Assembly (NCBI GenBank): GCA_947452985.1 | Contig: CANGEU010000003.1 | Coordinates: 34,284 to 98,283, forward strand | Reading direction: 5' to 3' | Source of the DNA: Micrococcales bacterium | GTDB lineage: Bacteria > Actinomycetota > Actinomycetes > Actinomycetales > Microbacteriaceae | DNA: 64,000 nucleotides | Shown: one piece after another, positions 28,243-59,670 of the stretch | How positions within the stretch are numbered: the first letter of the stretch is position 1 | How the letters are laid out: each line of letters starts with the position of its first letter | Notes under the pieces: generated by a model | Told to the model about the DNA's origin: nothing | The model's database searches: none | What the model saw: the letters and a program-made list of their open reading frames with translations, nothing else | Translations under genes and position numbers: made by a program

Positions 28243-28262
28243 ATCCACAACTTGCTTAAGCT

Positions 28263-38349: not shown

Positions 38350-41300
38350 ATGTTTGCCAGAGTATATCGCAGGATACGAGAAATGCGACGTAAGGGGACG
38401 TCCTTTGTCGCGCTCGTGGCGCTACTCGCATCCGCCTTCACATACCTCGATATACCTACCTCAGCAAACGCTGCCATTGTCAGTAGCAACCTCGTTCTAA
38501 ACCTCGACGCCAGCAGCACCTCATCGTTGGCAGCCACCGGCGCCACCGGTTGGAACAGCGTCAGCCCTGCCTCGTCCACCGCAACCTCCTCCTTTTTTGG
38601 TAACGCTGCGAGAGTAACCGACTCAACCGGCGCCAGCATGTCTATGGATGGCACTGGAGACGCAACGGTTTTCCCTGCCGGAACCGCGAGGACCGCCGGT
38701 GCCATGACGGTCGACACCTGGATCAAGCCAGGAAACCTGCGGATTGGTTGGAATGTTTTTGCATCCCGTTGGTTCCCAACTACCGCACGCGGTGGAACTT
38801 CGGTTGACCAGGACTGGCATTTAGGTATTTATGGCACAACTTCTAGCAACCTAAAATTCCAACTAAATACTGGCGCCGGACTCATAACCAGCACCACGAC
38901 TTTCCCAACCACCAGCGCCAACAAGTGGTACCACCTCGCAGTAACCATCGACGCTGCCAACACCGCAACCCTGTGGGTCAACGGCGTAGCAGAAACAACC
39001 CAGGCAAACTTCCCGCACACCGATAACGCAACCGCCCAACTTCACATAGGTGATGTTGGCGATGCGGCACAAAGTTCAGCATTCAACGGAAACATCAGCC
39101 GAGTCCGTATTTACAACGCAGCACTTACGCCTGCTCAAATGGCCCAGAACTTCCTAACCGACAGCGTCAACTATGGTTATGCTCCGGCCAACACAGTTGC
39201 TCCATCGGTCACCGGCACTGCCAAGGTTGGAACCGCACTTAGCGCCACCGAGGGAACTTGGGGCGTCGGCGACGCCGCTGGAACCACAACTACCTACCAG
39301 TGGCAGAGTTCAACGGATGGTTCCACTGGATGGGCCAACATCACGGGTGCAACTTCTGCTACGTATACCCCAGTCACCAACGATGCCCTAAATTTCCTCA
39401 GAGTAAATGTAACCAAGACCAATAGCGGGGGTTCCGCGACCGCAAGTTCGGCAGCCACCGTAAAAGTTCAAACTCAAAATGGAATTTCAATGGTCAGCAG
39501 CGGAAAGCTGACCGGGCTCATCGCAACAGTGCCGAATGACGCCACGATTTACAACGTAACCCTCTCCACCAGTAATCTCTCGGCAACCATGACACTGGGC
39601 ACAACGACCGGGCTTACGGTTGTGCCAGGTTATGCAAGCACCGCAAGCTACATGGCAAGCGCGATAAATAGCGCTGCTCCGATTATCACTTTCCGCGGAG
39701 CCGGAACAGCGATAAATACGGCACTCGCCAACGTTTCCTACACTTCCGCCACAAAACAGGTTGACCTAATCAAGCTCTATTACGCGACAGCTGGGGCAAC
39801 CGATACCGACACCAAGAACTACATCCCGATCTACGACAACGGCCAGCTAACTTTCCACTACTACGCCTACAAGAACCATGCAGCTGCAAAAAACCGCGCC
39901 GACATGGATACTTCACTTGTCGGCCTGACAACCACCGATAACGTTCAGGCGCCTGGACCTTGGTACTTGGTTACACCGCGTTACCAGATTGAGTGGACTC
40001 GAACCTCGGCAATCATCGGCAGTAACACCAACGTTTGGATGGGTGCAACTTCAGCCAATGGCTCTACCGATTGGTACTGGCCAGCGAACACCGATGGCTA
40101 CCCAAGCGCTACCAAGTTTGCCGCAAACGGCGTTGGAAGCAGCAACATCTTTAACGGAACCAGCACAGCATTACCTTATTGTGCGAGTGAGCCTAATGGC
40201 GGGTCGACCGGAGATCGTTCCGGTTTCTTCTACATTTGCGGTGGCAATCTTGGATGGGACGACGTTCCAGTAACCACAACTACGGCGAACTTCGTCATGG
40301 AAACGTATGGAACTGCCCCCTTCAATACAGGCGCGGCAGGCTCACTGGCAATGACCAACAGCATTGTTGCAACGTCATTCGATGCTCCAACTGGTGTTAC
40401 TGCAACGGCAACAGGCGCGGGATCGGCATTCGTCAGCTGGACGGCACCTGCTGCAAACACCACCATCAATCCACTGAATTCACACAAGGTTGAGTACTCG
40501 ACCTCTGCTGCCTTCACAACGTTCAGCACTGCAATTGTGTCTGGCGCTTCTTATTCGTCCACAGTAATTTCCGGACTAACAGCCAACACGCTCTACTATT
40601 TCAGAGTCTTTGCCTATGGCGCAACAGGCGGCCAGCCTTACGGTGTTACCTCGGCGGCAGTCTCAACTACCACGCTTTCCACAGCAACAACAATTACGGT
40701 AGTTTCAACAGGCGGTGGTGTTGCTGGCACCGACTACACAATTTCCAAAGGCACAATTTTCCCGAAGTCTGGAACGAGTGCGAATGTCAATGCAAGTGAT
40801 ATTCAAACCTCTCTGGGATCAATCACAACTCTTTTAGCGGCAGACAATGTCGTTATTTCTGCTCCCATAACTTGGAGCAGTGGCAGCTACCTGCAACTTG
40901 GAAATGGTTCCAGCAGTTCGGTGACCATAAATAAAACAATCACTACATCGGGTAGTTTCTCGCAGCTCATAATTCCACCGACTACATATACTCTCGACGT
41001 AAAAAATGGTGCGAGCATTCAGTTCACCTCCGCTCTGTCGCAGTACTTGACTATTGGCGGAACTTCCTACACGCTCTTGAAGACCGAGGCTCAAATCGCT
41101 GCGCTCGCCTCAACCACGGGTAATTACGCACTTGCCAAGCCGCTAACTTTTGCCACTGCATACACCAGCTCTTCACCAATTTCGGTCCTAAACTTCGCAG
41201 GAACAATTGATGGTCTGGGGAACACAATCAATGGTTTGAGTCTGAACCCAACCACTGCAGGGGGAAACGGTTTCATCCGAAACATTGCAACCGGTGCTGT

Positions 41301-44300
41301 TGTTCGAAACCTCGGTGTAATAAACGTAGACATCAAGCTCTCAAGCGCCAATGCCCTAGAAGTTGGCGCATTAGTTGGTAACTCCAATGGTGGAACACTC
41401 GAGCAAGTGTGGACCACGGGTTCGATCAAGGCGACGCCAGGCGCGACCGTTGGAAATCTCCTGGCCGGTGGAATTTTGGGTGATGCAATCTCGGGAACAA
41501 CCACCATCACAAAGTCTTGGTCGAGTGTAAGCATTGACACTTCAACTGCCACATTCAATTACCTAGCTCAAGGCGGAATCGTTGGTGGAGCCGTTGCTTC
41601 ATACGGTCAGGCCAATACCGGCAATGGAGGAAACGTAACACTCGACCAGGTTTACTCAATCGGTAACCAGAAGTGGACTACGACCGCGCAAACGTGGCAT
41701 GCCGTTGGTGGAATCTTGGGAATCCACTTCTCTAAGGCAGCGATTTCGTTCACCGATGTTTTCTCTTGGTCAAATTTGTCGCACGATGTCGACGCCAATA
41801 ACTACAACTACGGCGGAATTATCGGTGTTTCCCAAACTGGAACCGGTGGCACTGCGTCGACATTCACAAGAATGTACACAAACTATGACACCTGTTCAGA
41901 TAGCGGATCTAATGCTGTCTCGGCTTGTACCAAGAGCGTCGTTCCAGGTTCAGCTGTCTCGGCAATGACCGGCTCAAACTGGACTACAAATGCAACGTAC
42001 GGTACCTACCTAACCAATGTAGCCCCTCCCGTGAAGCCACTTTTCGTGCAGGTCATTGCCCCGGCCGACAACTCGTATTCGGGCATTGCCAACAGGTTCC
42101 TTGACTCAAATGGCACTGCGCAAAGCCTGAGCGCACTCAACCTTTCTGTCACTGGAACACCGGTTTACTCGATTCTGGCGAACGCGGCTAAGGCTACCTA
42201 CCCTTCGGTTACCTACACTTCTGGGTTGGCTCTGGGTGGCACTGCAGCCGCGGCCTATTCAGTGAACTCTTGGGCTGCCGGAACCTCAGTAACGATTAGT
42301 CGCGTGCCTCAAACTTTCACCTGGAGCCCTACTACCTCGATCTCTTTTGGAAGCGGAACGTTCACACCGAGTGCGGCACCAGTTTCATCTGCTGGTTCAA
42401 CCATCAGTTACGCGGTTGCTTCCGCCGGAACTACCGGATGTACAGTGAACCCGTCAACCGGAGCGGTTACCTACACCGCTGCTGGTAGCTGTGCGGTTAC
42501 CGCAACGGCTGCTCAGACCGCCGACTACACCTCCGCGACTGCAACAGTGACTTTCTCAATCGCTGAAGCAGCAGCCGCACCGACGGTCACCACGATTGGC
42601 ACGTCGACCACATCACTACTCGTTTCCTGGACCGTCCCAACAGTTAACTCTTCGGTGGCACTAACCGGTTATCAAATTCTTTACTCAACCTCGGCAGATA
42701 TGTCTGGGGCAACAACCGTAAACACCGGAAACACAAACACCACTCGACTGTTCACCGGTTTAGCCTCTGGAACTACCTATTACTTCCAAGTGCGTGCGGT
42801 TGGTGGTTCAACCTGGTTGGGTGCTGTGAATGCCACAGCCGTAACCGGCACACCTAAGGTGGCCAACACAACCATTACCGTAGTTGCAACTGGTGGCGGA
42901 GTTCTTGGCACCGATTACAAGCTTTCGAATGGTGTTCTTTACACAACCAGCGCGATCGCAAGCGTAAACGTTGCCGACATTCAGACCGCACTTCAGTCTG
43001 GCGACCTCACCATCGCCGCCGATAACATTGTTGTGAACACCGCGATTACCTGGTCTTCGAACCAGACCCTAACTCTCGGCACCACAGCCGTTGGAAGCCT
43101 TGACCTAAACGACAGCATTACTGCGAGCGGAGCCGGTGCAGGTCTGGTAATCGCAGCGACCAATTACAACCTGAAGACCCAAACCGGAGCGGAAATTATT
43201 CTCTCTGGCGCCAGCAGCACGCTTTCCATTGGCGGAAACTCGTACACACTGATTCGCGCGGTTGGCGATCTTGCTTCGGTCACCACAACCGGCTTCTACG
43301 CTCTTGCCAAGCCAATTGCATACAGCGGAAATATTGCAACCTCGCCAATCAACCTAACCTTCACCGGCACCTTCGATGGTCTTGGAAACAACGTCGACTT
43401 AATGCGCATTCGTCCAGTGGCAGATGGCTCATACGGTTTCTTTTCCTATCTAAATGGCGCAACCGTTCGCAACCTTGGAATCACTCGCGCCTGGACCTCG
43501 ATTACCACAGCGGTGAACCTAACCAAGATTTCTTCGGGTATCGTGGCCGGTGAAACTTCTGGAACTACCTCGCTGACCCAGGTTTGGACGACTGGCCACA
43601 ACGACGCGACTATGGGAACCATCAGCCGTTATGGCTCTGGCGGATTGATCGGTAATGCCACGAGTGGAACGCTCACGATTACAAAGTCGTGGTCGGCAGT
43701 CTCGATGAATTCAAACGGGGCAGCAATCACATACATTGCAATTGGTGGATTACTCGGATCTACTAGCGCAGTGGTTGGTGACGCATCAACCATCGCTGGC
43801 GGTTCAGTCGTTATGAACCAGGTGTACTCAACCGGAAATATTTACTGGCAGGTTGGGCCTGGACACCGCGGTTACGGTGGTTTGATTGGTCTTCCTTATT
43901 CAACCGGAACCGTTTCGATCACCGACGCATTTAGCTGGTCACCGATGCGAAATGCAGACAACAACTACGCAGGTCTTTTGGGTGCGCCTGGTGGCGGAGC
44001 GATCACCGTAACGCGCGCCTACACAACCAACACGACTTCAACTTGGACGGGTGGAACGCAGACTCTCACCAGCGTTTCCGCAGGCATCACTTTGGGTGCA
44101 AACGTGGCCAACCTAAACACCGCAAACTGGTCGGCTAGCGGAACCTCAAAGCTAGTAAATCTGCCGGATCCTTTCCGCCCGGCCTATGTTGCGGTGGTTG
44201 CGCCAACCGATGGCTCTTACAGCACCTTAAGCTACATGTTGGTGGATGGCCTTTGGACCTCGACTACCTTGGCTTCGCTAAACGTGACCGCAACCGGCAC

Positions 44301-50300: not shown

Positions 50301-53300
50301 CACCAATGGACGCGCACTTTCTTCACTTCCAATGGCCGTCAAGAATTACTACGTGCGAGTTGCGGTTTCCGGAACACCGAACGGTTCTTACAGTGACATC
50401 GTTTACCGAACCATCAACAGCGTTGACCAGACCAAGACTCTTTCAGCGTTCAACCTCACGGTTTCGGGCACACCGGTGTATTCGATTACCGAATCAGCAG
50501 TATTGGGAACCTACGCGGTAACCTACACCTCGGGTTTGACCTATGGCGGCACCGGGGCCTACCTCTTCAATTTCTTGCCATACCCTTTTTCCACCTCTGT
50601 GACGATCAGCAAATACGCGCAAACAATTTCGCTGACCTCCACCGCCCCAACCACGGCAACTGTTGGCACCACTTACACACTCGCTGGAACCGCCTCCAGT
50701 GGACTGACAATCACTTACACAATCGATAGCAGCTCGACTTCGATTTGCAGCATTGCCGGTTCGGTAGTAACTTTCAACGCTCTAGGTACCTGTACCATCA
50801 ACGCCAACCAGGCCGGTAACACCACTTACCTAGCCGCACCGCAAGTTCAGCAGGCTGCGATTGCAACCGTAAAGGGTGCCCAGACGATTACCTTTACCTC
50901 GTCAGCTCCAACCACCGCAAAGGTTGCTGGGTCTACCTACACTGCTACAGCAACATCAACCAGCGGTGGTGCGCCAGTCCTCACTGTTGACTCGTCGTCG
51001 TCGTCGATTTGTTCTATAGCTGCGGGTGTGGTTTCGTTCCTTGCCGTTGGAACTTGTAAGGTCAACGGAAACGAAGCCGGTGGGACAAACTGGAACGCTG
51101 CAATCCAGGCACAGCAGAGCTTTACCGTGGCAAAGGGTGTCTCCACAATTGTGATCACCTCAACCGCACCAACAGCAGCAGTTGTGGGCGGTTCCACCTA
51201 CGCAATGACTGCAACCAAGACCGCTGCTAACACCAACTCGGTTACCTACTCGGTTGACTCAACAACTTCAACTATCTGTTCGGTTTCTGGCGCTGTGGTG
51301 AGCTTCCTACTTGTTGGAACTTGTAAGGTCAACGCCAACCTAGCTAGCGACACCCAGTACGAAGCGGCCACTCAGCAGCAACAGGTAATCACAGTTGGTA
51401 AAGGCGACCAAGTTCTAGCCTTCACATCGTCAGCTCCAAACGCGGCAAAGGTTGGCGCTCCGAACTACACGTTGACCGCTACCGGTGGAGCTTCAACCAG
51501 TGCGATGGTGCTCTCGGTAGATTCCATCGCGACAGGAAAATGTTCCGTAGCCGGTTTTGTCGTCACATATTTGTCCGTTGGTGACTGTGTTCTGAACCTG
51601 AACCAGGCTGGCGACACCAACTACAACGCGGCCACTCAAGTTCAGCAGACCGTGACGATTACCGCAGACGGTCGTTGCCCGAATGGTTTCGTTTCAGGAA
51701 ACTACTGTTTGATTCGTTTCAACACTTCCGGAACCTGGACCGTGCCAACCGGTGTTACCACAATTGATCTGCTCGCTGTTGGTGGCGGTGGCGCCGGTGG
51801 CGGTGGCGCCGGAGGCAACACCAGTCCAGGTGGCGGTGGCGGTGGTGAAGTGCTCGAAGCCTTCACTCAAAGTGTTGTAACTGGCCAGAAGTTCACGGCA
51901 ACTGTTGGTGCCGGCGGTATCGGTGGCGGTGCAGTAAACGCAGCAACACCAAGCACCAGTGGATCTGCTACCACGATTACAGGCACAAATGGTTTCGTGA
52001 CTATCACTGCGCGCGGTGGAGGTAACGGTGCAACCTATGACTTTACTAATTCTCTAGCAATCGCTGCCGGCGGCGGAGCAACCATTGCTGGTGGAGGTGG
52101 AGGAAACGGCCAGGCCGGGACTCCTCCAACAACTCCTGGTACCGGCGGTGTCTCGACCGGTGGTGCCGGTATTTCTAACAACACGAACGCTGCCCTCCAA
52201 GCTGGTGGTGGTGGAGGTGGTGCCGGCGGAAACGGTACTAACGCGACTTCATCATCGGGTGGTGCCGGCGGTGCTGGAAAGAATTCAACCATTCTCGGCA
52301 TGCTGCTAGGTGGCGGTGGCGGTGGCGCTAAACGTCAAGCTGTTTCTGGAACCGCTGGAACTGCAACCGCTGGTGGTGGCGCAGGAGGTTTAGCTGTAGC
52401 TGGTACTCCTGGTACCGCAAACACCGGTGGCGGTGGCGGTGGTTCGGCTGGTTCAAACGTTGGAGCCAATGGTGGTTCGGGTGTGGTAGTTATTCGCATC
52501 GCGCTTCAGAGCCAGACCGTTGCGTTCACTTCAACAGCGCCAACGGGACTCGTCTTCGGCACCTCAACGACCTACACGCCAACGTCATCGGGAAGCGCTT
52601 CTGAAGTTTCACCGGTTATTACGGTCGACGCTTCGTCGTCGGCGGTTTGTTCTATCAGTGCCGGTGTGGTTTCGATCACCGGTGCAGGTACCTGTACTTT
52701 GAATGCAAACCAGGCTGGCAACGGTTTCTACGCTCCAGCTTCTCAAGTTCAGCAAAGCTTCACCGTGGCGAAGGCTGACCAGACAATCACGTTTACCAAC
52801 GAGCCAGCTTCAACAAAGGTCAACACCACATACACACCAAGTGCAACTGCAACCGGTGGCGGAAGCGTAACCTTCACAATCGCTTCTGGTTCATCTGCCG
52901 TATGTTCGATTGCGTCCGGCGTGGTTACTTTCAACGCCGTTGGTTCTTGTGTTGTTCTAGCTGACTCGGCCGGCAGCACGAACTACAACGCTGCGGCTCA
53001 GGGCTCGAAGACTATTACCGTTGGTAAGGGCGACCAAACAATCACCTTCACCAACAACCCAGCAACACCAAAGGTCAACACCACCTACACCCCAACCGCA
53101 ACCGCAACCGGTGGCGGAAGCGTGACATTCTCTATTGCATCAAACTCGTCTGCGATTTGTTCGATTGCTGGCAACGTGGTCACATTCAATGCCGTCGGTG
53201 ACTGTGTGATTCTTGCCGACTCAATTTCAACTGCCAACTGGAGTGTTGCGACACAGGGCTCGAAGACTGTGACCGTTGCCAAGGGCGAGCAAACCATCAC

Positions 53301-56300
53301 CTTCACCAACAACCCAGCAACACCAAAGGTGAAAACCAGCTACACCCCGACCGCAACTGCGACCGGTGGTGGAAGCGTAACCTTCACAATTGCCGCCGGT
53401 TCGTCGTCGGTGTGTTCAATAGCCTCTGGAGTTATTACCTTCCTTGCGGTTGGCGATTGTGTAATCAAGGGAGATTCAGCTGCTTCGGCCAACTGGAATG
53501 CGTCAGCCCAGGGTTCTAAGACCGTAACCGTTACCAAGGGTGATCAGGCAATCACGTTCACTTCGAACGCACCAACCAATGCGGTTGTAGACGGGTCCAC
53601 CTACACGATTACAGCTAACGGTGGGGATTCTACGAGCGCGGTTACTTTCACTGTCGACACTTCTGCTACCGCTATCTGTTCGATCTCGGGTGCGGTTGTG
53701 ACCTTCCGCGCTGTTGGCAGCTGTGTGATTAACGCCAACCAGGCCGGGGATGTCAACTACTTGCCAGCTACCCAGGTTCAGCAAACCATCACTGTTGGCA
53801 AGGGCACACAGGTTGTAGGAATCACTTCGGCTGCGCCAACCAACGCCGTGGTTGATGGTTCGACCTATGCTGTCAGCGCATCCAATGGCCGCGGAACCGC
53901 GAACGTGGTGCTTTCGATTGACTCGTCCGCAATTGCTGTTTGTTCGATCACCGGTTCAGTAGTTTCATTCCTAGCTGCCGGCACTTGTAAGGTAAACGCC
54001 AACCAGGCTGGCGATGCCAACTACAACGCAGCCGCCCAGGTTCAGCAAACCTTCGCCGTTGGCAGGGGCGCACAGGTTGTTGCAATCACTTCGACCGCAC
54101 CGAGTTCAGCTGTGGTTGATGGCGCGACCTATACGGTTATCAAGACCGGCGGTCGTTCAACATCATCGGTAGTGACTTCAATTGCTTCGGCCTCCGCTTC
54201 GGTTTGTTCGATCAGCAGTTCGGTTGTCACATTCCTTACCGCCGGCGACTGTGTGGTGAAGGTCAATCAAGAGGGCGATGCCAACTACACCGCAGCCTCG
54301 GAAGCTACCCAGACCATCACAGTTGGTAAGGGTGCACAGGAGATTTCCATCACTTCAACCGCGCCAACCAATGCTGTGGTTGATGGTTCGACTTACACAG
54401 TTTCTGCAACCGGTGGACGTTCTACCTCGTTGGTGATTTCTTCGATTGCAGCCGCTTCAGCTTCGGTCTGTTCGATAGCTGCCGGTGTGGTCACCTTCCT
54501 TGCGGCTGGCGATTGCGTGGTCGAATTCAACCAGGACGGCGACGCCAACTACAACGCCGCTCCAACGCAAACCCAAACCATCACAGTTGGCAAGGGATCG
54601 CAGACAGTCGACTTCACTTCGTTGACACCAACCGGTGTTCGCGTTGATGGCAGCGTTTATGTTCCAACCGCAACCGGTGGCGCATCGACCAGCGCGGCGA
54701 CGATCTCGATTGCTTCCTCGTCGTCGACGATTTGTGAAATCAACAACGGTGAAGTTTCGTTCCACGCGGTTGGTTCTTGTGTCGTTGAAGTGAACCAGGC
54801 TGGCGACGACAACTACAACGCAGCTCCTGTGAAAACCCAAACCATTACCGTGGCTAAGGGTCTACAGTCGCTTACCAAGACTTCGGTTGATCCAGCCGCT
54901 GTGGTTGATGGCGCAACCTACACACCTACCTTTACTAGCGGCGCCTCGGGTAGCGCTGTTGTCGTAGCAATTGCTTCGGGTTCGGCGGCCGACTGCACTG
55001 TTTCAAACGGAACCATTTCGTTCATCGGTGCTGGCGACTGTGACGTAACCGTGAACCAGGCTGCAAACGCCAACTACGAAGCTGCCCCAGAACTTGCTTT
55101 CACCATCACGGTTGGCAAGGGCTCACAAGCAATTACCTGGACCACCACCGAGCCAAGTAGCGCGGTAGTTGGAGGCGTTACCTATAGCCCAGCTGCAACT
55201 GGTGGGGCAACGGGCAACACAGTTTCGTTCCGCGTCGATGTGAACACCGCCTCGGTCTGTGCCGTCAGCATGGGTGCGGTTCGTTTCATTGGTGTTGGTA
55301 CCTGTACCGTTGTCGCCAACCAGTCCGGTAACTCGAACTACCTGGCCGCGCCACAAGTTTCGCAAACCTTCACCGTAGGTAAGGGAACGCAAGCAATTGC
55401 CTTCACTTCGACGATCCCAACCGCGGTTGTTGACGGTGCAACCTACACCCCTGCTGCACTCGGCGGTCCAACCGGTAACTCGGTTACCTTCTCGATTGCT
55501 TCGGCATCGTCTGCGGTTTGTACTTTGGCTTACGGAAAGATTTCCTTCCAGAATGTTGGAACTTGTGAGGTAGAGGCAAACCAGCTCGGCAACACCAACT
55601 ACAACGCGGCTCCTCAAGTCGTTCAATCGTTCACGGTTGGCAAGGGTGCTCAAACGGTTTCGTTCACCTCTGCCGCACCAAGTGCCAAAGTTTCGGGAAC
55701 CACTTACACGCCGGTAACTGCCGGTGGTGCTTCTGGCAATGCGGTGACACTATCGATCGCCCCTGCCTCGTCGTCGATCTGTTCAGTAAACAATGGCGTG
55801 GTCTCGTACCAGGCTGTTGGTTCGTGTGTGGTTCAGGCGAACCAGGCTGCGTCGGCCAACTACGAAGCTGCAGCCCAGGTTACTCAAACCATCACCGTGG
55901 CTAAGGGTGTTCAGGTTCTGAACTTCACCACCACTCCACCTTCACTTCGACCAGTACAAGGAACCACCTACGTTCCTGCCGTAACCTTTGGCAACTCCGG
56001 CGTGCCTGTGGTCTTCACCATCGGCGCCGAAGCCGCTTCAATCTGTACCATCGCCAACGGAACCATCTCGTTCCTCGCAGTCGGCGACTGCGTGCTCTAC
56101 GCCGACCAAGCTGGTAACGCGAACTACACAGCGGCAACTCGCATCAGCCAGGTCTTCGACATCACCAAGGGTGAGCAGATCGTGAACTTCACCTCGAACG
56201 CGCCAACCACTGCGGTTGTTGACGGAGCTACCTACACCCCAACTGGTACCGGAGGCGCTGGAACCAGCCCACTAGTGTTCTCGGCAACCGCAGAGTCTGC

Positions 56301-59300
56301 TGGAATCTGTACCGTTCTAGTTGGCGTGGTCTACTTCCAGGGGGCCGGCGACTGTGTCATCGCTCTCAACCAGGCCGGCGACACCAACTACAACGCGGCC
56401 ACCCAGAAACTTCAGACGATTTCAGTTGGCAAGGGTTCACAGACCATCACATTCACCAGCAGCAATAACACTGCGACGGTCGACGGAGCAGCCTACTTAC
56501 CAACCTTTACCAAGGGATCAAGCATCAACGCCGTACACATTTCGGTGGCAAGTTCGTCTTCGATGGTTTGTGAGGTTACTGCTGGCAGCGTTGCTTTCCA
56601 CTCGGTTGGTGACTGTGTGATCGAGGCTACTCAGGCTGCCGACAACAACTACGAAGCGGCACCGATGGTCGCCCAAACCATTTCGGTGGCGCAGGGTACT
56701 CAGGTTGCTTTGGTTGGTCACGCCTCGTTGTCTAGCTTGACCTTGGGTTCATCCACTCCAACCGCGGTTTTGACCACGAGCGGCGGTTCAGGTGACGGCG
56801 CGATTTCTTGGTCGGTCGACCCAACTAGCGCGGCTTACTGTTCGGTTTCTGGCGATGTGGTTTCTGGTTTGGCTTCAGGTTACTGTGACCTTGTTGCCAC
56901 CAAGGCCGCCGACCAAAACTACCTCGAGGCTACCGCTACCCTGACCGTTGTGGTTAGCACCGGTGGCCAGGCGCCAGTTCGCACCTCAATCAATGTTGAG
57001 AACCCAACCTTCTCTGAAGGTTTGACGCTAACCCTCTCACTCGATGGTGGCGACGGCAGCGGTGCAGTTTGGTTCGAAAGCCTGACCACGCACGTTTGTA
57101 ACACCGATGGCGGCACCACGCTGAACGTTTACCACGCTGGAACCTGTAACGTGATCGGTCACAAAGATGGCGACGACAACTACGAGGCAGTCCAAGACAC
57201 CCTAAGTTTCAACATTGCGAAGGCAACTCAGTCCGGCGTGACAATTCACTTGGCGAGCCCACTAACTTACTCGGCAACCGGAGCTGTTACCTCGGCACTC
57301 AGCCTCGACGGCGTTCTTGCCGACGGCGCCCAGAGTTTCTCGGTAACGAGCGGAACCTGTACTGTGGTCGACGGCGAACTCAGCGCAACCGAAGCCGGTG
57401 ACTGCGAAGTTACCGCGAGCATCGTGGGCGATGACAAATACCTAGACGGCACATTCACTCACACTTTCACCATTGCGAAGGCCGCCCAGAGCCCACTGAC
57501 CGCCACTTTGGCAACCGATGCACTTCCTGCCATCGCTTGGAATGGTGTGAAGACCACTACATTCGATGTGGCTGGCGGCTCTGGAGCCGGCACCCTGAAC
57601 GTGAGCACCAGCACGCCATTGATCTGTTCGGTCTCGCTAACCGACTCCGTGGTTACCGTCACCGGTATCGCTCAGGGAACCTGTGACGCCAGTGTCTCGC
57701 GCGCTGCCACTGCAAACTACCTTGGCGCTTCGACCCTGTTCACCGTTGAGGTACTTGACCTTGCTGGTCGCCCTACCGCAGTGGCTGCCGCTGCCCCAGT
57801 GCGTTCACCAAACGGTTCGTTGTTATCCACCGTTTCTTGGACCGCACCGGCTGCCGCCAGCACTCGAGCATCGGTCACCGGCGTGAAGGTTCAAAGCCGA
57901 ATTGGTAACGGCGCCTGGGCCGATGTTACTGAAACACCAGTTCCTGCCAGCGAGACCTCTCTAGCGGTAGCGGTTCAGCCTTGGACCAAGTACAACTTCC
58001 GTGTTGCGGCTACCACGGCTCTTGATGGTGACAACTTGAACTGGGCCTACTTCGACCTTTCTGGAGATAACACTCCAGACGTTCTTGTAGTTGGCGGTGG
58101 CCGAGTAGTAGCCTCAACCGCGAAGGCTGCAACGACCTCTGGCGAGACCGTAATCATCACGGGTGCCGGATTCGAAGCGGGTTACACCACACGCGTTGAA
58201 CTAACCACTGGCTCCTCGGTATTCGCTGCCGGCATTCGCCCGGCCGCCGCTCTTGTCCAGACCGTGGTTCTGCCTGCAACCTACATTTCGCCAACGCAGC
58301 TTTCGTTCGTGCTACCTAAGATCACCTTGCCCAAGGGAACTTTGAGCCTGACCACGCAGATCAAGGTTTTGAGCACCGACAACCTCAAGTCAGACGCATT
58401 CCCGCTCGACTACATTCCAAAGAAGCTGGCCCAGACTCTAACGGCAACCTTGCCTGCAGTGAACACCATCATGACCATGACGGCTCCGCTAATTTCAACC
58501 GGAACGGTTACCTCTAGCAGCACCGACAATCCTCCGGTGGTTACCGCTACGCCGGCCTCGGTGTGTACCGCATCGATCAACCTTCTAAACAAGTTGGTGG
58601 TGACTCCGGTTTCGCCGGGCAAGTGTTCGATCTCGGTGGTTATCCCTGGCACCCCTGCCTACCTAGTGAGTGCAACCAAGTCCACGGTCGTTTACATCAA
58701 AACCAACCGCACCGCAGGTCTCACCGCAACCGCAGACAGCGTGACCTCCTCGGGCGTTCACACCCCAACTACTTTCAACGTGACCTCAGGTCTAAGCAAC
58801 ACCGCAGTCTCGGTGGTTGTTGGTGAAAACGCGGTAGAAGTTCCAGTAACACTGAACAAGCGCGAAGGTGCCGTCCTCTTCACCGTTGATGCCGCTTCAG
58901 ATGCCGCGGGTCGTTGTATCGCCGATGGTGGAGACGCCACCACCGGCCTAGTTGGAACCATCACCATGAACGACCTTGGAACTTGTAAGGTCACCGTGAC
59001 GCTTCCTGCCGACGACGGCTATTACGTTGGAACTGAAACCATTGTGATCACCGTGAACGGTGTTGCAGCAGACCCTACAGTTCCTGTTGTGCAGGATCTT
59101 GGCGACGGCGAGGCTGCACCAGAGGACACCGACCTGAACCCGAAGGATCCTGACACCGAGCCTGCCGTGGCAATTACCCTGGACCCTAGCCGCGCAGCCG
59201 ACTACTCGTTCGGTGGCGAAGACGGCTTAGCTTTCGACCCACTAACCAAGAAGCTAAACGTTCGCTCTCGCACTCCACTGGTTGGTGTTTGGACCGCCAC

Positions 59301-59670
59301 GCTTACCTCGCCAAACGTAAACAAGACCTGGTTCAAGATTCCTGGAAAGATCGTGAAAAAGGTTCAGACTTACACTTACTCGAACATCTGTAAGTTGACG
59401 ATGACCGTGAAGAAGGACCCGAAGCTCAAGAAGAAGGTAACCCGCATTGTTGGTGCCGGCTGTATTTTGAGTTCGGCCAACGAAGTGAAGCCTGGCAAGG
59501 AAGCCGGCTGGACCGCGCTTACTTCGGTCGGAATCCAGAAGATTAAGGTCAAGTACAAGCGCATCCGCCAGTACGCCAAGACGGGTCTAAGCTACGTGAA
59601 GACCAAGGGCAACCGCGTGTTGAAGAACATCAACCGCACCTGGGTTGTGAAGATCGGCCGCAGGCCGTAA
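38350..59670 (+). CDS. giant secreted multidomain surface/extracellular protein (7,106 aa)
   Basis: A single uninterrupted ORF. The start is 38350 or, more likely, the ATG at 38383 (AGGA 9 nt upstream). Signal peptide MRRKGTSFVALVALLASAFTYLDIPTSANA|A. Domain order: LamG-like, Ig-like, C-type-lectin-like, FN3. Then five super-repeats of about 715 aa (GLUG-type beta-helix plus an Ig unit, four of them with FN3). Then 24 tandem paired-Cys Ig units interrupted by one Gly-rich domain, followed by FN3, IPT-like, 2 Ig, an acidic linker and a Lys/Arg-rich tail. Confidence 0.9.
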   Translation: MFARVYRRIREMRRKGTSFVALVALLASAFTYLDIPTSANAAIVSSNLVLNLDASSTSSLAATGATGWNSVSPASSTATSSFFGNAARVTDSTGASMSMDGTGDATVFPAGTARTAGAMTVDTWIKPGNLRIGWNVFASRWFPTTARGGTSVDQDWHLGIYGTTSSNLKFQLNTGAGLITSTTTFPTTSANKWYHLAVTIDAANTATLWVNGVAETTQANFPHTDNATAQLHIGDVGDAAQSSAFNGNISRVRIYNAALTPAQMAQNFLTDSVNYGYAPANTVAPSVTGTAKVGTALSATEGTWGVGDAAGTTTTYQWQSSTDGSTGWANITGATSATYTPVTNDALNFLRVNVTKTNSGGSATASSAATVKVQTQNGISMVSSGKLTGLIATVPNDATIYNVTLSTSNLSATMTLGTTTGLTVVPGYASTASYMASAINSAAPIITFRGAGTAINTALANVSYTSATKQVDLIKLYYATAGATDTDTKNYIPIYDNGQLTFHYYAYKNHAAAKNRADMDTSLVGLTTTDNVQAPGPWYLVTPRYQIEWTRTSAIIGSNTNVWMGATSANGSTDWYWPANTDGYPSATKFAANGVGSSNIFNGTSTALPYCASEPNGGSTGDRSGFFYICGGNLGWDDVPVTTTTANFVMETYGTAPFNTGAAGSLAMTNSIVATSFDAPTGVTATATGAGSAFVSWTAPAANTTINPLNSHKVEYSTSAAFTTFSTAIVSGASYSSTVISGLTANTLYYFRVFAYGATGGQPYGVTSAAVSTTTLSTATTITVVSTGGGVAGTDYTISKGTIFPKSGTSANVNASDIQTSLGSITTLLAADNVVISAPITWSSGSYLQLGNGSSSSVTINKTITTSGSFSQLIIPPTTYTLDVKNGASIQFTSALSQYLTIGGTSYTLLKTEAQIAALASTTGNYALAKPLTFATAYTSSSPISVLNFAGTIDGLGNTINGLSLNPTTAGGNGFIRNIATGAVVRNLGVINVDIKLSSANALEVGALVGNSNGGTLEQVWTTGSIKATPGATVGNLLAGGILGDAISGTTTITKSWSSVSIDTSTATFNYLAQGGIVGGAVASYGQANTGNGGNVTLDQVYSIGNQKWTTTAQTWHAVGGILGIHFSKAAISFTDVFSWSNLSHDVDANNYNYGGIIGVSQTGTGGTASTFTRMYTNYDTCSDSGSNAVSACTKSVVPGSAVSAMTGSNWTTNATYGTYLTNVAPPVKPLFVQVIAPADNSYSGIANRFLDSNGTAQSLSALNLSVTGTPVYSILANAAKATYPSVTYTSGLALGGTAAAAYSVNSWAAGTSVTISRVPQTFTWSPTTSISFGSGTFTPSAAPVSSAGSTISYAVASAGTTGCTVNPSTGAVTYTAAGSCAVTATAAQTADYTSATATVTFSIAEAAAAPTVTTIGTSTTSLLVSWTVPTVNSSVALTGYQILYSTSADMSGATTVNTGNTNTTRLFTGLASGTTYYFQVRAVGGSTWLGAVNATAVTGTPKVANTTITVVATGGGVLGTDYKLSNGVLYTTSAIASVNVADIQTALQSGDLTIAADNIVVNTAITWSSNQTLTLGTTAVGSLDLNDSITASGAGAGLVIAATNYNLKTQTGAEIILSGASSTLSIGGNSYTLIRAVGDLASVTTTGFYALAKPIAYSGNIATSPINLTFTGTFDGLGNNVDLMRIRPVADGSYGFFSYLNGATVRNLGITRAWTSITTAVNLTKISSGIVAGETSGTTSLTQVWTTGHNDATMGTISRYGSGGLIGNATSGTLTITKSWSAVSMNSNGAAITYIAIGGLLGSTSAVVGDASTIAGGSVVMNQVYSTGNIYWQVGPGHRGYGGLIGLPYSTGTVSITDAFSWSPMRNADNNYAGLLGAPGGGAITVTRAYTTNTTSTWTGGTQTLTSVSAGITLGANVANLNTANWSASGTSKLVNLPDPFRPAYVAVVAPTDGSYSTLSYMLVDGLWTSTTLASLNVTATGTPTYTIAPNVTNGIYSVDYVSGLTLTGSNAPYYQLMVWPISTSVTISKQNQTVSWTPTTSVNFGSGSFTPSSAPVASGGTTISYALSSAGTTGCTVNPTTGVVTYTSAGSCSITATAAGTSSYLSASTTVSFTIAEAAAAPTVTPTAATTNSIMLTWTAPTVNASTSLTGYQITYSTAVGMTSPTTITTTNANTSRLITGLTTGTTYYFQVRAINGSTWSGTANATPASAAPKASATTITVVASGGGVSGTDFKIVDGVFYTTSSSVSVNAADIQNELLTKSVVIAAENVVVNKGITWATSQSLTLGNASTGSLVINDSITASGATAGLVIAPTTYTLNVSNGSEIILSGSSSTLSIGGTNYTLIRSIAGLSTVGATGNYALSQPLAFSSTALTAAPITSGFTGTFDGLGNTLDGMILTVPSTGMGGLFGSLTNGATVRNLGVTNVKMTMANSASSYVAAGVITANVPSSTTGTVTLNRVWSTGFITGASGTIQHLAAGGLVAWAQAGTVNISQSWSSVNIDVSSVATTNLAVGGLLGTDVTAMGQGWGSGGANFSITESYSTGNIKVGTFGWVGIGGLVGLHWSSSTTSISDSFHWGLLPTGTGNTGGILGASGSVSTSLARTYTTSTCINGAASIGCTSGQTIGATVSGLNTSVWSSSGASTLVNLALPTRPLYVQVLTNTNGTYDTVSYQIVDGSGAVQNAAALTALGLSVSGTAAYTPSLANAPISASPYSFNYSSGLTLGGSNASLYSLLPWRDATSVTISKLNQTMTWSPTTSLAFGTGTVTPTAPTSTGGSTMTYAVTSAGTTGCTVNASTGVLTYTSGGSCTVSATTPSTGNYLQVSASATFVIADPATAPTASATTAGSGMLNIGWTVPSVSASAAITGYTLTYSTAAAMTGATTVNVGNTRGYLLTGLTAGTTYYFQVRAVSGSTWTGPLSDVASATPNSTATTINVVASGGGVAGTDYKVNGGVISATGTVNINDTDIEGILATEGTVQLAATNVNVNASISWSSNAVLVLGNTSAATVNVNDVIAGSGATAGVKILPTTYGLAVKSGSAIRLTGSTPSFNLGGTSYTVVNTVAGLSNVAAGTTWALTAPITLSTNYSTAVRDFTFTGIMDGLGNTVNNMQITPTTTRDVGFFAQLGGATVRNVGFTNINFYSNTGSINLRMGAVAGNGSSTGTNTVTQVWATGFNIQDAASGAVEIGGLFGGATAGTLNISKSWSSVSIASKAPSVGSGGLIGTNANVFSQTAVPTSAYNTLTINESYSVGNILRDLPANLSWYGNGGIIGVAYGWSVTINNSFTWGVVNATGTNGNSYVSTGGVVGIAHGSSTLSISNVYTTSGTNPNCVNNAAYTGCTSGAVAGAPVTGFSTGLWSTVNGASLVNLAPPTKLLYVRVKAPTDGSFGTVGYEIVDSTGTLQTLSSLNLSVSGTPTYDTISSASAKGTYTVNYSSGLTLGGTSAGVYSLNAWKTATSVVLSRLPQTLTWAPTTAIAFKTGSFTPSSTPSAVGAPTITYTVSDQGTTSCSVASLTGVVTYSSAGTCVVTATAAQTTDYTAASVNVSFVIAAAPTFTVVTSGGGVSGTDYTVSGGVITATSNASINASDLVTLLGTGSVQLAGNVIVNAPITWSANTVLTLGGTSGNNVTINKKITASGNTAGLEVKPSTYSLDTKNGISIVLSGTTPTLSIGGSSYTLVKSIADLANVTAVSTDKFALAVPVSFSTAITASPINVNFAGTFDGLGNTVDNMKLTYTGATNVGFFKNLAGGTIRNLGIINQIVSLEPATTTGNLAAGGLVGDSTGGTIEGVWTTGFVKVKSGKTYASLGMGGIVGNVSSGTLTINKTWSSVGLDGWYGTYTAMFAGGLVGGDLGTWSATSATAGGSLVMNEVYSTGDVSTPLTSGTNGIGGLIGLHQGTGTITVTNAFTWTQLVGNTGVNFGGFLGFGSGGAATFTNGYSINSVNYPAGSSNVTSSNTSWNYAMGATPGFVITGNSSWYESTNGRALSSLPMAVKNYYVRVAVSGTPNGSYSDIVYRTINSVDQTKTLSAFNLTVSGTPVYSITESAVLGTYAVTYTSGLTYGGTGAYLFNFLPYPFSTSVTISKYAQTISLTSTAPTTATVGTTYTLAGTASSGLTITYTIDSSSTSICSIAGSVVTFNALGTCTINANQAGNTTYLAAPQVQQAAIATVKGAQTITFTSSAPTTAKVAGSTYTATATSTSGGAPVLTVDSSSSSICSIAAGVVSFLAVGTCKVNGNEAGGTNWNAAIQAQQSFTVAKGVSTIVITSTAPTAAVVGGSTYAMTATKTAANTNSVTYSVDSTTSTICSVSGAVVSFLLVGTCKVNANLASDTQYEAATQQQQVITVGKGDQVLAFTSSAPNAAKVGAPNYTLTATGGASTSAMVLSVDSIATGKCSVAGFVVTYLSVGDCVLNLNQAGDTNYNAATQVQQTVTITADGRCPNGFVSGNYCLIRFNTSGTWTVPTGVTTIDLLAVGGGGAGGGGAGGNTSPGGGGGGEVLEAFTQSVVTGQKFTATVGAGGIGGGAVNAATPSTSGSATTITGTNGFVTITARGGGNGATYDFTNSLAIAAGGGATIAGGGGGNGQAGTPPTTPGTGGVSTGGAGISNNTNAALQAGGGGGGAGGNGTNATSSSGGAGGAGKNSTILGMLLGGGGGGAKRQAVSGTAGTATAGGGAGGLAVAGTPGTANTGGGGGGSAGSNVGANGGSGVVVIRIALQSQTVAFTSTAPTGLVFGTSTTYTPTSSGSASEVSPVITVDASSSAVCSISAGVVSITGAGTCTLNANQAGNGFYAPASQVQQSFTVAKADQTITFTNEPASTKVNTTYTPSATATGGGSVTFTIASGSSAVCSIASGVVTFNAVGSCVVLADSAGSTNYNAAAQGSKTITVGKGDQTITFTNNPATPKVNTTYTPTATATGGGSVTFSIASNSSAICSIAGNVVTFNAVGDCVILADSISTANWSVATQGSKTVTVAKGEQTITFTNNPATPKVKTSYTPTATATGGGSVTFTIAAGSSSVCSIASGVITFLAVGDCVIKGDSAASANWNASAQGSKTVTVTKGDQAITFTSNAPTNAVVDGSTYTITANGGDSTSAVTFTVDTSATAICSISGAVVTFRAVGSCVINANQAGDVNYLPATQVQQTITVGKGTQVVGITSAAPTNAVVDGSTYAVSASNGRGTANVVLSIDSSAIAVCSITGSVVSFLAAGTCKVNANQAGDANYNAAAQVQQTFAVGRGAQVVAITSTAPSSAVVDGATYTVIKTGGRSTSSVVTSIASASASVCSISSSVVTFLTAGDCVVKVNQEGDANYTAASEATQTITVGKGAQEISITSTAPTNAVVDGSTYTVSATGGRSTSLVISSIAAASASVCSIAAGVVTFLAAGDCVVEFNQDGDANYNAAPTQTQTITVGKGSQTVDFTSLTPTGVRVDGSVYVPTATGGASTSAATISIASSSSTICEINNGEVSFHAVGSCVVEVNQAGDDNYNAAPVKTQTITVAKGLQSLTKTSVDPAAVVDGATYTPTFTSGASGSAVVVAIASGSAADCTVSNGTISFIGAGDCDVTVNQAANANYEAAPELAFTITVGKGSQAITWTTTEPSSAVVGGVTYSPAATGGATGNTVSFRVDVNTASVCAVSMGAVRFIGVGTCTVVANQSGNSNYLAAPQVSQTFTVGKGTQAIAFTSTIPTAVVDGATYTPAALGGPTGNSVTFSIASASSAVCTLAYGKISFQNVGTCEVEANQLGNTNYNAAPQVVQSFTVGKGAQTVSFTSAAPSAKVSGTTYTPVTAGGASGNAVTLSIAPASSSICSVNNGVVSYQAVGSCVVQANQAASANYEAAAQVTQTITVAKGVQVLNFTTTPPSLRPVQGTTYVPAVTFGNSGVPVVFTIGAEAASICTIANGTISFLAVGDCVLYADQAGNANYTAATRISQVFDITKGEQIVNFTSNAPTTAVVDGATYTPTGTGGAGTSPLVFSATAESAGICTVLVGVVYFQGAGDCVIALNQAGDTNYNAATQKLQTISVGKGSQTITFTSSNNTATVDGAAYLPTFTKGSSINAVHISVASSSSMVCEVTAGSVAFHSVGDCVIEATQAADNNYEAAPMVAQTISVAQGTQVALVGHASLSSLTLGSSTPTAVLTTSGGSGDGAISWSVDPTSAAYCSVSGDVVSGLASGYCDLVATKAADQNYLEATATLTVVVSTGGQAPVRTSINVENPTFSEGLTLTLSLDGGDGSGAVWFESLTTHVCNTDGGTTLNVYHAGTCNVIGHKDGDDNYEAVQDTLSFNIAKATQSGVTIHLASPLTYSATGAVTSALSLDGVLADGAQSFSVTSGTCTVVDGELSATEAGDCEVTASIVGDDKYLDGTFTHTFTIAKAAQSPLTATLATDALPAIAWNGVKTTTFDVAGGSGAGTLNVSTSTPLICSVSLTDSVVTVTGIAQGTCDASVSRAATANYLGASTLFTVEVLDLAGRPTAVAAAAPVRSPNGSLLSTVSWTAPAAASTRASVTGVKVQSRIGNGAWADVTETPVPASETSLAVAVQPWTKYNFRVAATTALDGDNLNWAYFDLSGDNTPDVLVVGGGRVVASTAKAATTSGETVIITGAGFEAGYTTRVELTTGSSVFAAGIRPAAALVQTVVLPATYISPTQLSFVLPKITLPKGTLSLTTQIKVLSTDNLKSDAFPLDYIPKKLAQTLTATLPAVNTIMTMTAPLISTGTVTSSSTDNPPVVTATPASVCTASINLLNKLVVTPVSPGKCSISVVIPGTPAYLVSATKSTVVYIKTNRTAGLTATADSVTSSGVHTPTTFNVTSGLSNTAVSVVVGENAVEVPVTLNKREGAVLFTVDAASDAAGRCIADGGDATTGLVGTITMNDLGTCKVTVTLPADDGYYVGTETIVITVNGVAADPTVPVVQDLGDGEAAPEDTDLNPKDPDTEPAVAITLDPSRAADYSFGGEDGLAFDPLTKKLNVRSRTPLVGVWTATLTSPNVNKTWFKIPGKIVKKVQTYTYSNICKLTMTVKKDPKLKKKVTRIVGAGCILSSANEVKPGKEAGWTALTSVGIQKIKVKYKRIRQYAKTGLSYVKTKGNRVLKNINRTWVVKIGRRP
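38491..39165 (+). other. LamG / concanavalin-A-like lectin domain of the giant protein
   Basis: LVLNLDASS...MTVDTWIKPGNL...WHLGIYGTTSSNLKFQLN...WYHLAVTIDAANTATLWVNGV...GNISRVRIYNAALTPAQMAQNF. This is the pattern typical of Laminin_G_3-type domains. Confidence 0.7.
39830..40275 (+). other. C-type-lectin-like domain of the giant protein (EPN ... WDD)
   Basis: FHYYAY...GPWYLVTPRYQIEWT...VWMGATSANGSTDWYWPANTDG...YCASEPNGGSTGDRSGFFYICGGNLGWDDVP parallels the CTLD pattern W.G..D....W.W.DG...W...EPN...C...WND. Confidence 0.5.
40684..50610 (+). repeat. five coding super-repeats of about 2.15 kb inside the giant gene
   Basis: Unit starts (T(T/F)(I/T)(T/N)VV..GGGV.GTDY) at about 40684, 42868, 45007, 47152 and 49012. 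Each unit has F.GT.DGLGNT, VRNLG and runs of GLUG-like units. Each ends with an Ig unit starting at 42301, 44440, 46597 or 48748 (the next Ig unit, at 50611, opens the tandem array). FN3 domains (YYF(Q/R)V) end near 40675, 42855, 44995 and 47150. Confidence 0.85.
50611..51671 (+). repeat. tandem array, units 1-4, of Ig-like repeats of about 88-90 aa with paired Cys
   Basis: Each unit has the pattern Q.(I/V).(F/L)TS.AP....V......T.......(V/L)..D(S/T)....(I/V)C(S/T)(I/V).G.VV(S/T)F...G.C.(I/V)N.NQAG...(Y/W).AA.Q.QQ...V.KG. Confidence 0.85.
51672..52509 (+). other. glycine-rich domain inserted in the Ig array (paralogous to the domain in the 25900..28200 protein)
   Basis: RCPNGFVSGNYCLIRFNTSGTWTVPTGVTTIDLLAVGGGGAGGGG...(poly-Gly blocks)...GANGGSGVVVIRIAL. 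The smaller protein has CVDGTCWVTFDYTGDYSVWTPPAGINSLHFDVYGAQGG...GNGQVVIRYTF. Confidence 0.8.
52513..57765 (+). repeat. tandem array, units 5-24, of paired-Cys Ig-like repeats
   Basis: I counted 20 consecutive units from the translation. Units starting at 52780, 53035 and 53290 (next unit at 53545) are exactly 255 nt each and are the most similar to each other at nucleotide level. The other units are about 264-270 nt, and the last four are more divergent. Confidence 0.85.

Follow-up and report, generated by a model that had tools for sequence, protein, structure and literature searches.

A 7,106-residue modular protein encoded between a GDPD gene and guaA in a Micrococcales bacterium: a candidate strain-variable surface fibril with a basic C-terminal domain

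The giant gene and its setting

The window analyzed here, a 64,000-nt stretch of contig CANGEU010000003.1 (assembly GCA_947452985.1, Micrococcales bacterium; positions 34,284 to 98,283), contains a single uninterrupted open reading frame (ORF) at 38350..59670 (+) that begins with ATG, comprises 7,106 codons plus a stop, and is predicted to encode an exported modular protein that may be displayed at the cell surface. The remaining two + frames carry 330 and 182 stops across the same positions; thus, an open frame of such length is not a product of chance. The predicted protein (709 kDa, pI 5.4) is dominated by Thr, Ala, Gly, Ser, and Val, which together make up 60% of residues, and it contains 27 His and 72 Cys, the latter as 36 sequential pairs. 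The gene is separated by 56 nt from a GDPD-family phosphodiesterase gene and by 19 nt from guaA, and its GC content (0.51-0.58) shows no compositional anomaly relative to the flanks (0.53-0.55). Outside the giant gene, the window is ~91% coding, which makes the label "compact" a fair one for this genome; frame, flanks, and coding density all agree with the original prediction, made from the DNA letters, of one giant ORF in a compact genome between these two genes.

There is no Shine-Dalgarno sequence before ATG 38350 and a TAAACT hexamer lies 11 nt upstream of it, such that the mRNA of the giant gene may be leaderless. An alternative in-frame start, ATG 38383, has AGGA 9-12 nt upstream, and the longer N-terminus that begins at ATG 38350 (MF..V/L.Y...) is retained in relatives P0001 and P0157. 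Either of these may be the true start, and both yield an identical signal-peptide-like segment. Promoter and terminator scans near both ends of the gene were uninformative.

No curated family fits the whole protein, as had been anticipated for an exported modular protein of this architecture: a search against NCBIfam returned no match, and Pfam matched single modules only. A scan of the species-set contigs with aa 1-1415 returned two unrelated FN3 matches only and no orthologue.

N-terminus and head

The N-terminus has the features of a Sec signal peptide, in accordance with the initial reading of the gene; a basic n-region, a SFVALVALLASAF core, and an ANA/A motif at the putative cleavage site are all retained in orthologues. 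The first Cys of the protein is at aa 611 or later, and therefore there is no lipobox. The head opens with the LamG-like domain that had been foreseen, in which the Laminin_G_3 match covers profile positions 1-149 of 151 (78.9 bits versus a cut-off of 27.6). Next comes a single AIR9-type Ig-like domain (aa 278-375), which had been overlooked; repeats that resemble it occur in tandem in many Solirubrobacterales-type proteins.

The remainder of the head (aa 376-679) is conserved in relatives and carries the motifs YIPIYDN...FHYYAY, WYLxTPRYQxE, EPN (aa 614), and WDD (aa 636). It had been described as C-type-lectin-like, a designation that finds no support from profile or structure: Lectin_C (PF00059) matches the head at E 0.22 (12.7 bits versus a cut-off of 22.6), a PDB search with a head profile built from six relatives detected no C-type lectin-like domain (CTLD), and an AlphaFold2 (AF2) model of aa 375-690, based on a four-sequence alignment, has a pLDDT of 44, with values <50 over the part at issue. 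What remains as a hint of a C-type lectin is the likeness of the EPN and WDD motifs. In C-type lectins, a change of EPN to QPD switches specificity from mannose-type to galactose-type. The orthologue in L004 (GCA_046049565.1) has QPD at the position aligned to aa ~614 of the window protein, and EPN is found in the window protein, P0001, P0157, and P0162.

Five super-repeats with a beta-helix core

The predicted number of five super-repeats was recovered, and these are mutually 40-43% identical by self-BLAST. A super-repeat comprises FN3, an N-terminal subdomain of beta structure, a right-handed beta-helix of GLUG type, and a small beta domain, and it ends in a single paired-Cys Ig-like unit; FN3 is present in four strong copies (total Pfam E 1e-38) and is absent from the fifth super-repeat. 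Each core (~530 aa) has one DGLGN motif and 4-5 GG[ILV]xG motifs, and most of the columns invariant among all five hold Gly, Trp, Leu, or Asn at structural positions.

An AF2 model of the second core, made with 15 aligned sequences, is all-beta (pLDDT 91, pTM 0.92). The best Foldseek matches to this model in the PDB are a putative IgA1 protease, BACOVA_03286 (3n6z; E 8.5e-5), and the Streptococcus pneumoniae IgA1 protease (6xja; E 3e-4), both with probability 1.0 and with low TM scores on the query (0.31-0.33), such that only part of the core superposes. Weaker matches are to generic right-handed beta-helices, including tailspikes, pectate and alginate lyases, polygalacturonases, and the adhesin PfbA (probability 0.06-0.57, TM score <=0.2). 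A profile of the five cores also matches the Glug-annotated proteins P0138-P0140, P0142, and P0143 (E 2.5e-20 to 1e-8), certain of which carry a two-partner-secretion domain (PF05860) or Flg_new repeats. The Pfam Glug model (PF07581) did not match the core at E <= 1, and a PDB sequence search with the core profile returned no match. The earlier term "GLUG-type" is thereby upheld by homology to Glug-annotated proteins and by the IgA1-protease-like fold, but not by the Pfam model itself; on the predicted structure, "GLUG-type beta-helix" is correct in substance for the core. Because the best structural matches are non-catalytic and there is no protease or carbohydrate-active enzyme (CAZyme) signature, we infer that these modules are rigid spacers or binding surfaces, rather than enzymes.

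A stand-alone version of the module was observed in L009 (10001-12739), where P0137 (912 aa) consists of one super-repeat core and two Ig units with 34% identity. Its gene, on a 176-kb contig, adjoins a response-regulator gene, and a Lectin_C/Invasin_D3-like gene lies ~9 kb downstream.

Paired-cysteine arrays and other stalk modules

Paired-Cys units amount to 29 across the protein (five in the super-repeats, three and 20 in the two arrays that flank the glycine-rich domain, and one in the C-terminal cassette), close to the ~30 Ig-like units that had been proposed. The Ig fold of these units is weakly supported, with Big_3_5 matched weakly in nine of the 20 units of the long array (best E 0.01); "Ig-like" is accordingly a putative designation for the ~87-aa unit. 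A PDB profile search with the paired-Cys unit identified no relative, and the Pfam models Big_2 and MBG/YDG are unmatched by the window protein.

The glycine-rich domain (PF21722) and the five FN3 domains of the original prediction were both recovered, the latter as the four strong copies of the super-repeats and one weak, divergent copy downstream of the long array that is matched in both Pfam and the PDB (Table 1). The proposed IPT-like domain holds for the family, with TIG matched in nine of ten members (best E 1.7e-6), but the copy in the window is sub-threshold (E 0.0028). In PDB sequence searches with single pieces and profiles (beta-helix core, Ig unit, head, TIG region, and tail), nothing but FN3 was matched, and a search of the literature on PF21722 and the GLUG motif yielded nothing specific.

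A conserved C-terminal cassette with a basic tail

The protein terminates in two Cys-pair beta domains (here called Cmid), an acidic linker, and a basic domain. The latter corresponds to the Lys/Arg-rich tail noted earlier, with a net charge of +24 over the last ~106 aa and a pI of 10.7. HMMER with the last 167 aa against 1.84 billion cluster representatives retrieved 19 proteins, 17 of them at E <= 1e-10. In every long match, the tail forms the extreme C-terminus of a large protein, the longest of which has 6,111 aa; the weakest match (E 2.8e-5) and some short fragments give no information on position. Shared motifs include VG.W.A, WFK, C..LTVKKDPKLKK, G.GC.L, GIQKIK.KYKR.RQYAKTGL, and R.LK..NRT.V.K.GR, and the domain stops a few residues before the stop codon. 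Searches with the tail against Pfam, NCBIfam, and the PDB returned no match. On these comparisons, the last ~135-150 aa constitute an undescribed domain common to a small, lineage-specific family.

Module HMMs indicate that family members have a common cassette (Ig array, FN3 in most members, TIG, Cmid, and tail) behind differing N-terminal parts; the Cmid HMM was detected in nine of 13 scanned tail-bearing proteins, and the window protein itself was not re-found by the same scan. Among the tail-bearing proteins, P0152 (3,159 aa) combines Gly_rich_2 and fn3 with one super-repeat, P0158 (2,072 aa) has a He_PIG head, and P0159 (1,747 aa) has a YDG head; each of these three has a signal-peptide-like N-terminus. 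Compared with the relative in L016, the Cmid domains are 95% identical and Cmid plus tail 95-97% identical (dN/dS 0.02-0.04; tail 0.023), versus 54-70% for the stalk. Such strong conservation of Cmid and tail is, by analogy, the behavior of sorting or anchoring modules.

The C-terminal region lacks any LPXTG-like motif and, outside the signal peptide, no stretch is hydrophobic enough for a transmembrane segment; a sortase-anchored LPXTG protein was rejected on these grounds. SLH, LysM, GW, CWB, and WxL wall-binding domains are likewise absent from the Pfam matches of the whole protein, of its pieces, and of 14 tails scanned at E <= 10. The earlier statement that the protein has no transmembrane anchor, lipobox, or LPxTG is thus accurate for these elements, but incomplete as an account of anchoring, given that the conserved tail domain is the best anchor candidate.

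Table 1. Modules of the giant protein and its flanking genes, with positions in the window and in the protein.
Feature	Position in window	Strand	Amino acids	Evidence and remarks
GDPD-family phosphodiesterase, upstream flank	37484..38293	- (divergent)		Pfam PF03009, E 1e-37; kept neighbor in relatives (synteny in L004 and L005)
Signal-peptide-like N-terminus	38350..38472	+	1-41	Basic n-region, SFVALVALLASAF core, ANA/A cleavage motif; kept in orthologues
Laminin_G_3 / concanavalin-A-like lectin-fold domain	38647..39138	+	100-263	Pfam PF13385, E 5.7e-22
AIR9/SCAB-type Ig-like domain, single copy	39181..39474	+	278-375	45-53% identity to tandem repeats in PF23197/PF16709-annotated proteins
Conserved head region, fold unassigned	39475..40386	+	376-679	Kept in 5-6 relatives
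Five super-repeats	40387..50853	+	680-1405, 1406-2118, 2119-2836, 2837-3553, 3554-4168	Self-BLAST, alignment
Three paired-Cys Ig-like units	50854..51669	+	4169-4440	Cys-pair periodicity, alignment
Glycine-rich domain	51670..52584	+	4441-4745	Pfam Gly_rich_2 PF21722, E 2.4e-21 and 1.4e-18
20 paired-Cys Ig-like units of ~87 aa	52585..57759	+	4746-6470	Alignments; DNA copies 60-78% alike
Fifth, divergent FN3	57760..58089	+	~6471-6580	Pfam fn3 E 4.8e-4; PDB neogenin FN3 E 7e-6
IPT/TIG-like domain	58090..58425	+	6581-6692	TIG PF01833 E 0.0028, sub-threshold in window copy
Two Cys-pair beta domains (Cmid)	58426..59064	+	6693-6905	Part of kept C-terminal cassette; module HMM, comparison with L016
Acidic Pro/Asp/Glu-rich linker	59065..59214	+	6906-6955	Charge profile
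Basic C-terminal domain	59215..59667	+	6956-7106	pI 10.7; Cys 7014/7038; ends ...VVKIGRRP; candidate envelope-retention module
guaA, downstream flank	59690..61246	- (convergent)		Kept neighbor in relatives

Relatives, synteny, and divergence

Four related assemblies carry an orthologue at this GDPD/guaA position, with the order pcrA-GDPD-giant in L004, GDPD-giant in L005, and giant-guaA-DUF3817-SURF1 in both L007, a metagenome-assembled genome (MAG) labelled "Micrococcales bacterium", and L013. In L013 (contig Ga0228703_1000001, 927,765 bp) the gene lies beside guaA, and collinearity with the window extends over its last 3,434 codons, almost without gaps, in the order super-repeat core, four Ig units, glycine-rich domain, 22 Ig units, FN3, TIG, Cmid, and tail. 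The relative P0157 (6,111 aa) has an N-terminal head sequence like that of the window protein, with signal peptide, LamG-type region, and EPN/WDD region, and it also possesses the tail, an Ig array, and five super-repeat cores.

Using the Nei-Gojobori method, dN/dS versus L013 is ~0.2 over 3,378 codons (0.10-0.28 per region), and across comparisons the giant gene has values of ~0.1-0.3, with no region near 1, compared with 0.016 for guaA. These values indicate a functional coding gene under purifying selection; the "strong selection" proposed for the gene is therefore correct as to purifying selection, but this is far weaker than in the flanks.

As would be expected of a replacement island, the giant gene is located between the same conserved core genes in L004, L005, L007, and L013. 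It is also more divergent than its neighbors: identity to relatives is 51-63% for the giant protein versus 97-99% for guaA, 97% for pcrA, and 87% for GDPD (L004), among genomes that are distant from one another and near saturation at synonymous sites. We dropped this contrast as proof of island replacement because dS is 0.87 for guaA and another flank gene, SURF1, also diverges (74% identity); faster evolution under weak constraint thus explains part of the contrast. Recombination is suggested only by two other observations. L004 has the closer flanks (GDPD 87%) and the more distant head (51%), and L005 the reverse (GDPD 70%, head 68%), such that the giant gene appears incongruent with the relatedness of its flanks; versus L016, both dN and dS fall abruptly at ~aa 6693 (dS from 1.7-3.0 to 0.55-1.0), which suggests a mosaic allele.

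Tandem tail-bearing genes in two further relatives indicate that the gene content of the locus varies. In L014 (93-10582), the 3,159-aa Gly_rich_2-headed, tail-bearing gene is directly upstream of a giant orthologue, and in L015 (1-11244) a gene for an Ig-array protein is followed by that for the 1,747-aa YDG-headed protein. Incomplete versions were also observed. An 837-aa ORF in L008 (8705-11218) corresponds to the C-terminal part of the giant protein only, with a GTG start inside an Ig unit and without a signal peptide. Its neighbors, on a contig of 3.6x coverage, are rpiB on one side and, on the other, a guaA with 99% identity to that of the window, and it could be what is left of a truncated gene or the product of chimeric assembly. 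A distant relative in L006 (19-9671) has Flg_new repeats N-terminal to the head region and is split into ORFs of 881 aa and 2,348 aa that overlap at 2628-2664 in different frames, as a result of a frameshift or an assembly error.

A proposed long surface fibril and its alternatives

We read the giant protein, with a probability of roughly 0.55, as a long, strain-variable fibrillar surface protein of a planktonic, rhodopsin-carrying actinobacterium, with the lectin head distal and the basic tail serving for retention. Following export through Sec by means of the N-terminal signal peptide, the cassette of two Cys-pair beta domains, acidic linker, and ~135-150-aa basic domain would hold the molecule at the envelope, most simply by electrostatic attraction of the basic tail to anionic wall polymers or membrane lipids. 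The stalk (~29 Ig-like units, five FN3, TIG, the glycine-rich domain, and five GLUG-type beta-helices) would project the head from the cell, and the head (LamG, AIR9-type Ig, and the conserved unassigned domain) would be the end that binds a ligand, probably glycans carried by particles, algae, or other cells, as its domain families suggest. The extended length would be of the order of 150-250 nm, as a rough estimate from typical domain sizes. As the most exposed structure of the cell, the body of the protein would evolve much faster than its core neighbors and be reshuffled between lineages, and the locus would for this reason resemble in its behavior the "giant gene regions" known from other planktonic bacteria. 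The rhodopsin gene in the window (16582-17370) fits a planktonic photoheterotroph, and the surface or adhesion-type roles put forward in the original prediction are a sensible class.

Several points weigh against this interpretation. Versus L013 and L007, the tail is no better conserved than the stalk, which implies that at least two tail subtypes exist. The tail resembles no known wall-binding domain, such that the only arguments for anchoring are its position, charge, and conservation. A single Pfam superfamily match (Laminin_G_3) underlies the lectin label of the head, and sub-threshold matches underlie the Ig fold of the 87-aa units. In addition, dS is near saturation for guaA and exceeds 1 for the others, and the arguments on rate and recombination are therefore qualitative.

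The strong divergence relative to the flanks, the incongruent and mosaic alleles, the variable gene content of the locus in relatives, and the analogy with replacement islands that code for exposed structures (PMC4033161; PMC5644125) would equally suit a protective coat or decoy, in which a layer of fibrils keeps phages and grazers off the wall or varies an exposed epitope, rather than mediating adhesion, and in which divergence reflects frequency-dependent selection. This is partly compatible with a fibril that binds glycans, and we consider it improbable as the principal role, although with an appreciable chance of being right; the overall dN/dS of the gene, with no region near 1, is at odds with it, and the conserved lectin-fold head suggests a specific ligand. 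Somewhat less probable again is a protein that is released from the cell as a matrix, aggregation, or scavenging factor, with the tail used for folding, for export, or for binding an external anionic target such as extracellular DNA, polyphosphate, or acidic polysaccharide. The lack of a recognized anchor (LPXTG, transmembrane segment, lipobox, SLH, or other Pfam wall-binding domain) and of a known homologue of the tail accords with release, but two indirect considerations count against it: a 709-kDa product would diffuse away from a planktonic, small-genome cell, and the tail is the common terminal module of several different exported proteins, a pattern typical of sorting and anchoring domains.

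Three further explanations have little to recommend them. The five beta-helices could be the catalytic domains of lyases or hydrolases in an array that degrades algal polymers, given that pectate and alginate lyases, polygalacturonases, and phage tailspikes appear among the Foldseek matches; this is unlikely, as those matches are the weak ones, the significant ones are non-catalytic GLUG beta-helices, no CAZyme or lyase Pfam model is matched, and the invariant columns are mostly structural. Also disfavored, and very unlikely, is a toxin of the CdiA/FHA type, contact-dependent or polymorphic, in which the stalk would deliver an effector located at the C-terminus: certain matches of the core profile do carry PF05860, but the giant protein has no such domain and belongs to a Gram-positive lineage, its C-terminus is the most conserved part among close relatives rather than a variable one, and the downstream gene is the convergent guaA, not an immunity gene. 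We regard an assembly artefact or decaying pseudogene as the least credible explanation of all. Short-read assemblies of relatives do break inside the gene, with an N gap in L016, the broken ORF in L006, and the signal-less 3' part in L008; however, the frame is open over 21.3 kb, and the internal DNA repeats are at most 78% identical (best tandem array, over 255 nt; most copies are 60-75% alike), which makes short-read collapse or expansion unlikely. The collinear orthologue on the 927-kb contig of L013, the shared architecture of the 6,111-aa relative, and dN/dS values <0.3 also argue for an intact gene. Nothing points to the assembly artefact that had been considered as a possible undoing of the prediction, and no characterized homologue with the same architecture was found.

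If the surface-fibril interpretation is correct, one exposed protein would account for ~1.5-2% of a very small genome (assuming ~1-1.5 Mb; one related contig alone is 0.93 Mb) and would probably dominate the contact of the cell with particles, algae, phages, and grazers. Giant surface genes recur in abundant plankton, almost none with a known anchor, ligand, or role, and the giant gene is the reason that short-read assemblies of related organisms break at this locus. The family offers several handles: a conserved, narrowly distributed basic C-terminal domain as a candidate retention module of Gram-positive cells, a lectin-fold head whose motifs differ between strains, and a constrained tail that contrasts with a fast, mosaic stalk. 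A broader proposal, which we put forward tentatively and hold to be more doubtful than the fibril itself, is that the C-terminal cassette (two Cys-pair domains, acidic linker, and ~135-150-aa cationic domain) serves planktonic Micrococcales as an undescribed module for sorting or for anchoring to the envelope. The cassette would then define lineage-specific, interchangeable, strain-variable fibrils with LamG, Gly-rich, He_PIG, or YDG heads, through which these ultra-small and abundant freshwater cells would mainly interact with particles, phages, and grazers, and the difference between EPN (window) and QPD (L004) would be a strain-level switch in sugar specificity.

Other features of the window

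An FMN riboswitch (RF00050; 2188-2318 (+), 100 bits, E 5.6e-22) lies just upstream of an ORF at 2386-3399 and is probably the leader of a riboflavin operon. A stretch of lower GC content at 16000-22000 (0.457-0.494 versus ~0.53-0.55) contains a bacteriorhodopsin-family gene (16582-17370), a gene for a DUF2599 protein, and a helix-turn-helix/HipA-like toxin-antitoxin pair (20314-21910), and is possibly a second flexible region. A second glycine-rich-domain protein of the window is encoded at 25900-28248 (-); this 782-aa protein matches the ALK_LTK glycine-rich domain at E 3e-10 and Big_12 weakly, and it does not have the basic tail of the giant protein.

Comparison with known giant proteins

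RTX adhesins such as SiiE, LapA, and MpIBP, and the Gram-positive Ebh, have long stalks of tandem Ig-like or other small domains that hold ligand-binding modules off the cell. The giant protein follows the same design logic as these adhesins and as Embp, a giant repetitive adhesin of Gram-positive bacteria (PMC9302970). A giant adhesin of the RTX type secreted by a type I secretion system (T1SS), as for LapA, SiiE, and MpIBP, was nevertheless rejected, as the protein has no GGxGxD motif, RTX repeats, or T1SS signal and instead has a Sec-type signal peptide. Unlike Ebh, it has no C-terminal transmembrane anchor and no LPXTG, the repeat families differ, and the candidate anchor is the undescribed basic domain. 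With the GLUG beta-helices of IgA1 proteases (S. pneumoniae 6xja and Bacteroides ovatus BACOVA_03286, 3n6z) it shares the best structural match of the core and GG[ILV]xG motifs; identity as an IgA1/Zmp metalloprotease was rejected, however, given that there is no HExxH in 7,106 aa and no peptidase Pfam match. The unmatched Pfam Glug model and the low TM scores are further differences from these beta-helices.

Giant surface-protein genes are already known from small genomes of free-living aquatic or symbiotic bacteria (PMC5644125; PMC4033161; PMC12863079; PMC11573180), and the gene is in this respect less singular than the original prediction implied; what is new is the basic C-terminal domain family, the five-fold GLUG beta-helix super-repeat, and the mosaic of constrained tail and fast stalk. 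A literature search on giant genes in Luna-type actinobacteria yielded nothing specific. The giant gene region (GGR, up to 42 kb) of Polynucleobacter asymbioticus and the clusters of giant proteins in flexible genomic islands of Alteromonas (PMC5644125; PMC4033161) resemble the present locus: in a free-living aquatic bacterium, a very large gene whose product is presumed to be exposed sits at one fixed site between core genes and diverges strongly between related strains; replacement-type behavior is indicated here only by incongruence and mosaicism. In contrast to those systems, the host is a Gram-positive actinobacterium, of another phylum and with a different envelope, and the gene has no compositional anomaly; no sequence homology with them is expected.

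A Gram-positive parallel is Apilactobacillus kunkeei, in which the extracellular proteins Giant1-5 (3,000-8,000 aa) have a beta-solenoid and undergo intragenic recombination in a genome of ~1.5 Mb (PMC12863079). The candidate fibril shares with these a Gram-positive cell, a small genome, a predicted elongated surface form with beta-solenoid domains and long repeat stalks, and possibly diversification by intragenic recombination; the habitats differ, one bacterium being a bee symbiont and the other planktonic. Giant1-5 have a single N-terminal beta-solenoid that resembles those of serine-rich repeat proteins, whereas the window protein has five GLUG-type beta-helices within the stalk and a LamG-type head. 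Surveys of huge proteins rank surface proteins second in bacteria, after nonribosomal peptide synthetases and polyketide synthases (PMC11573180).

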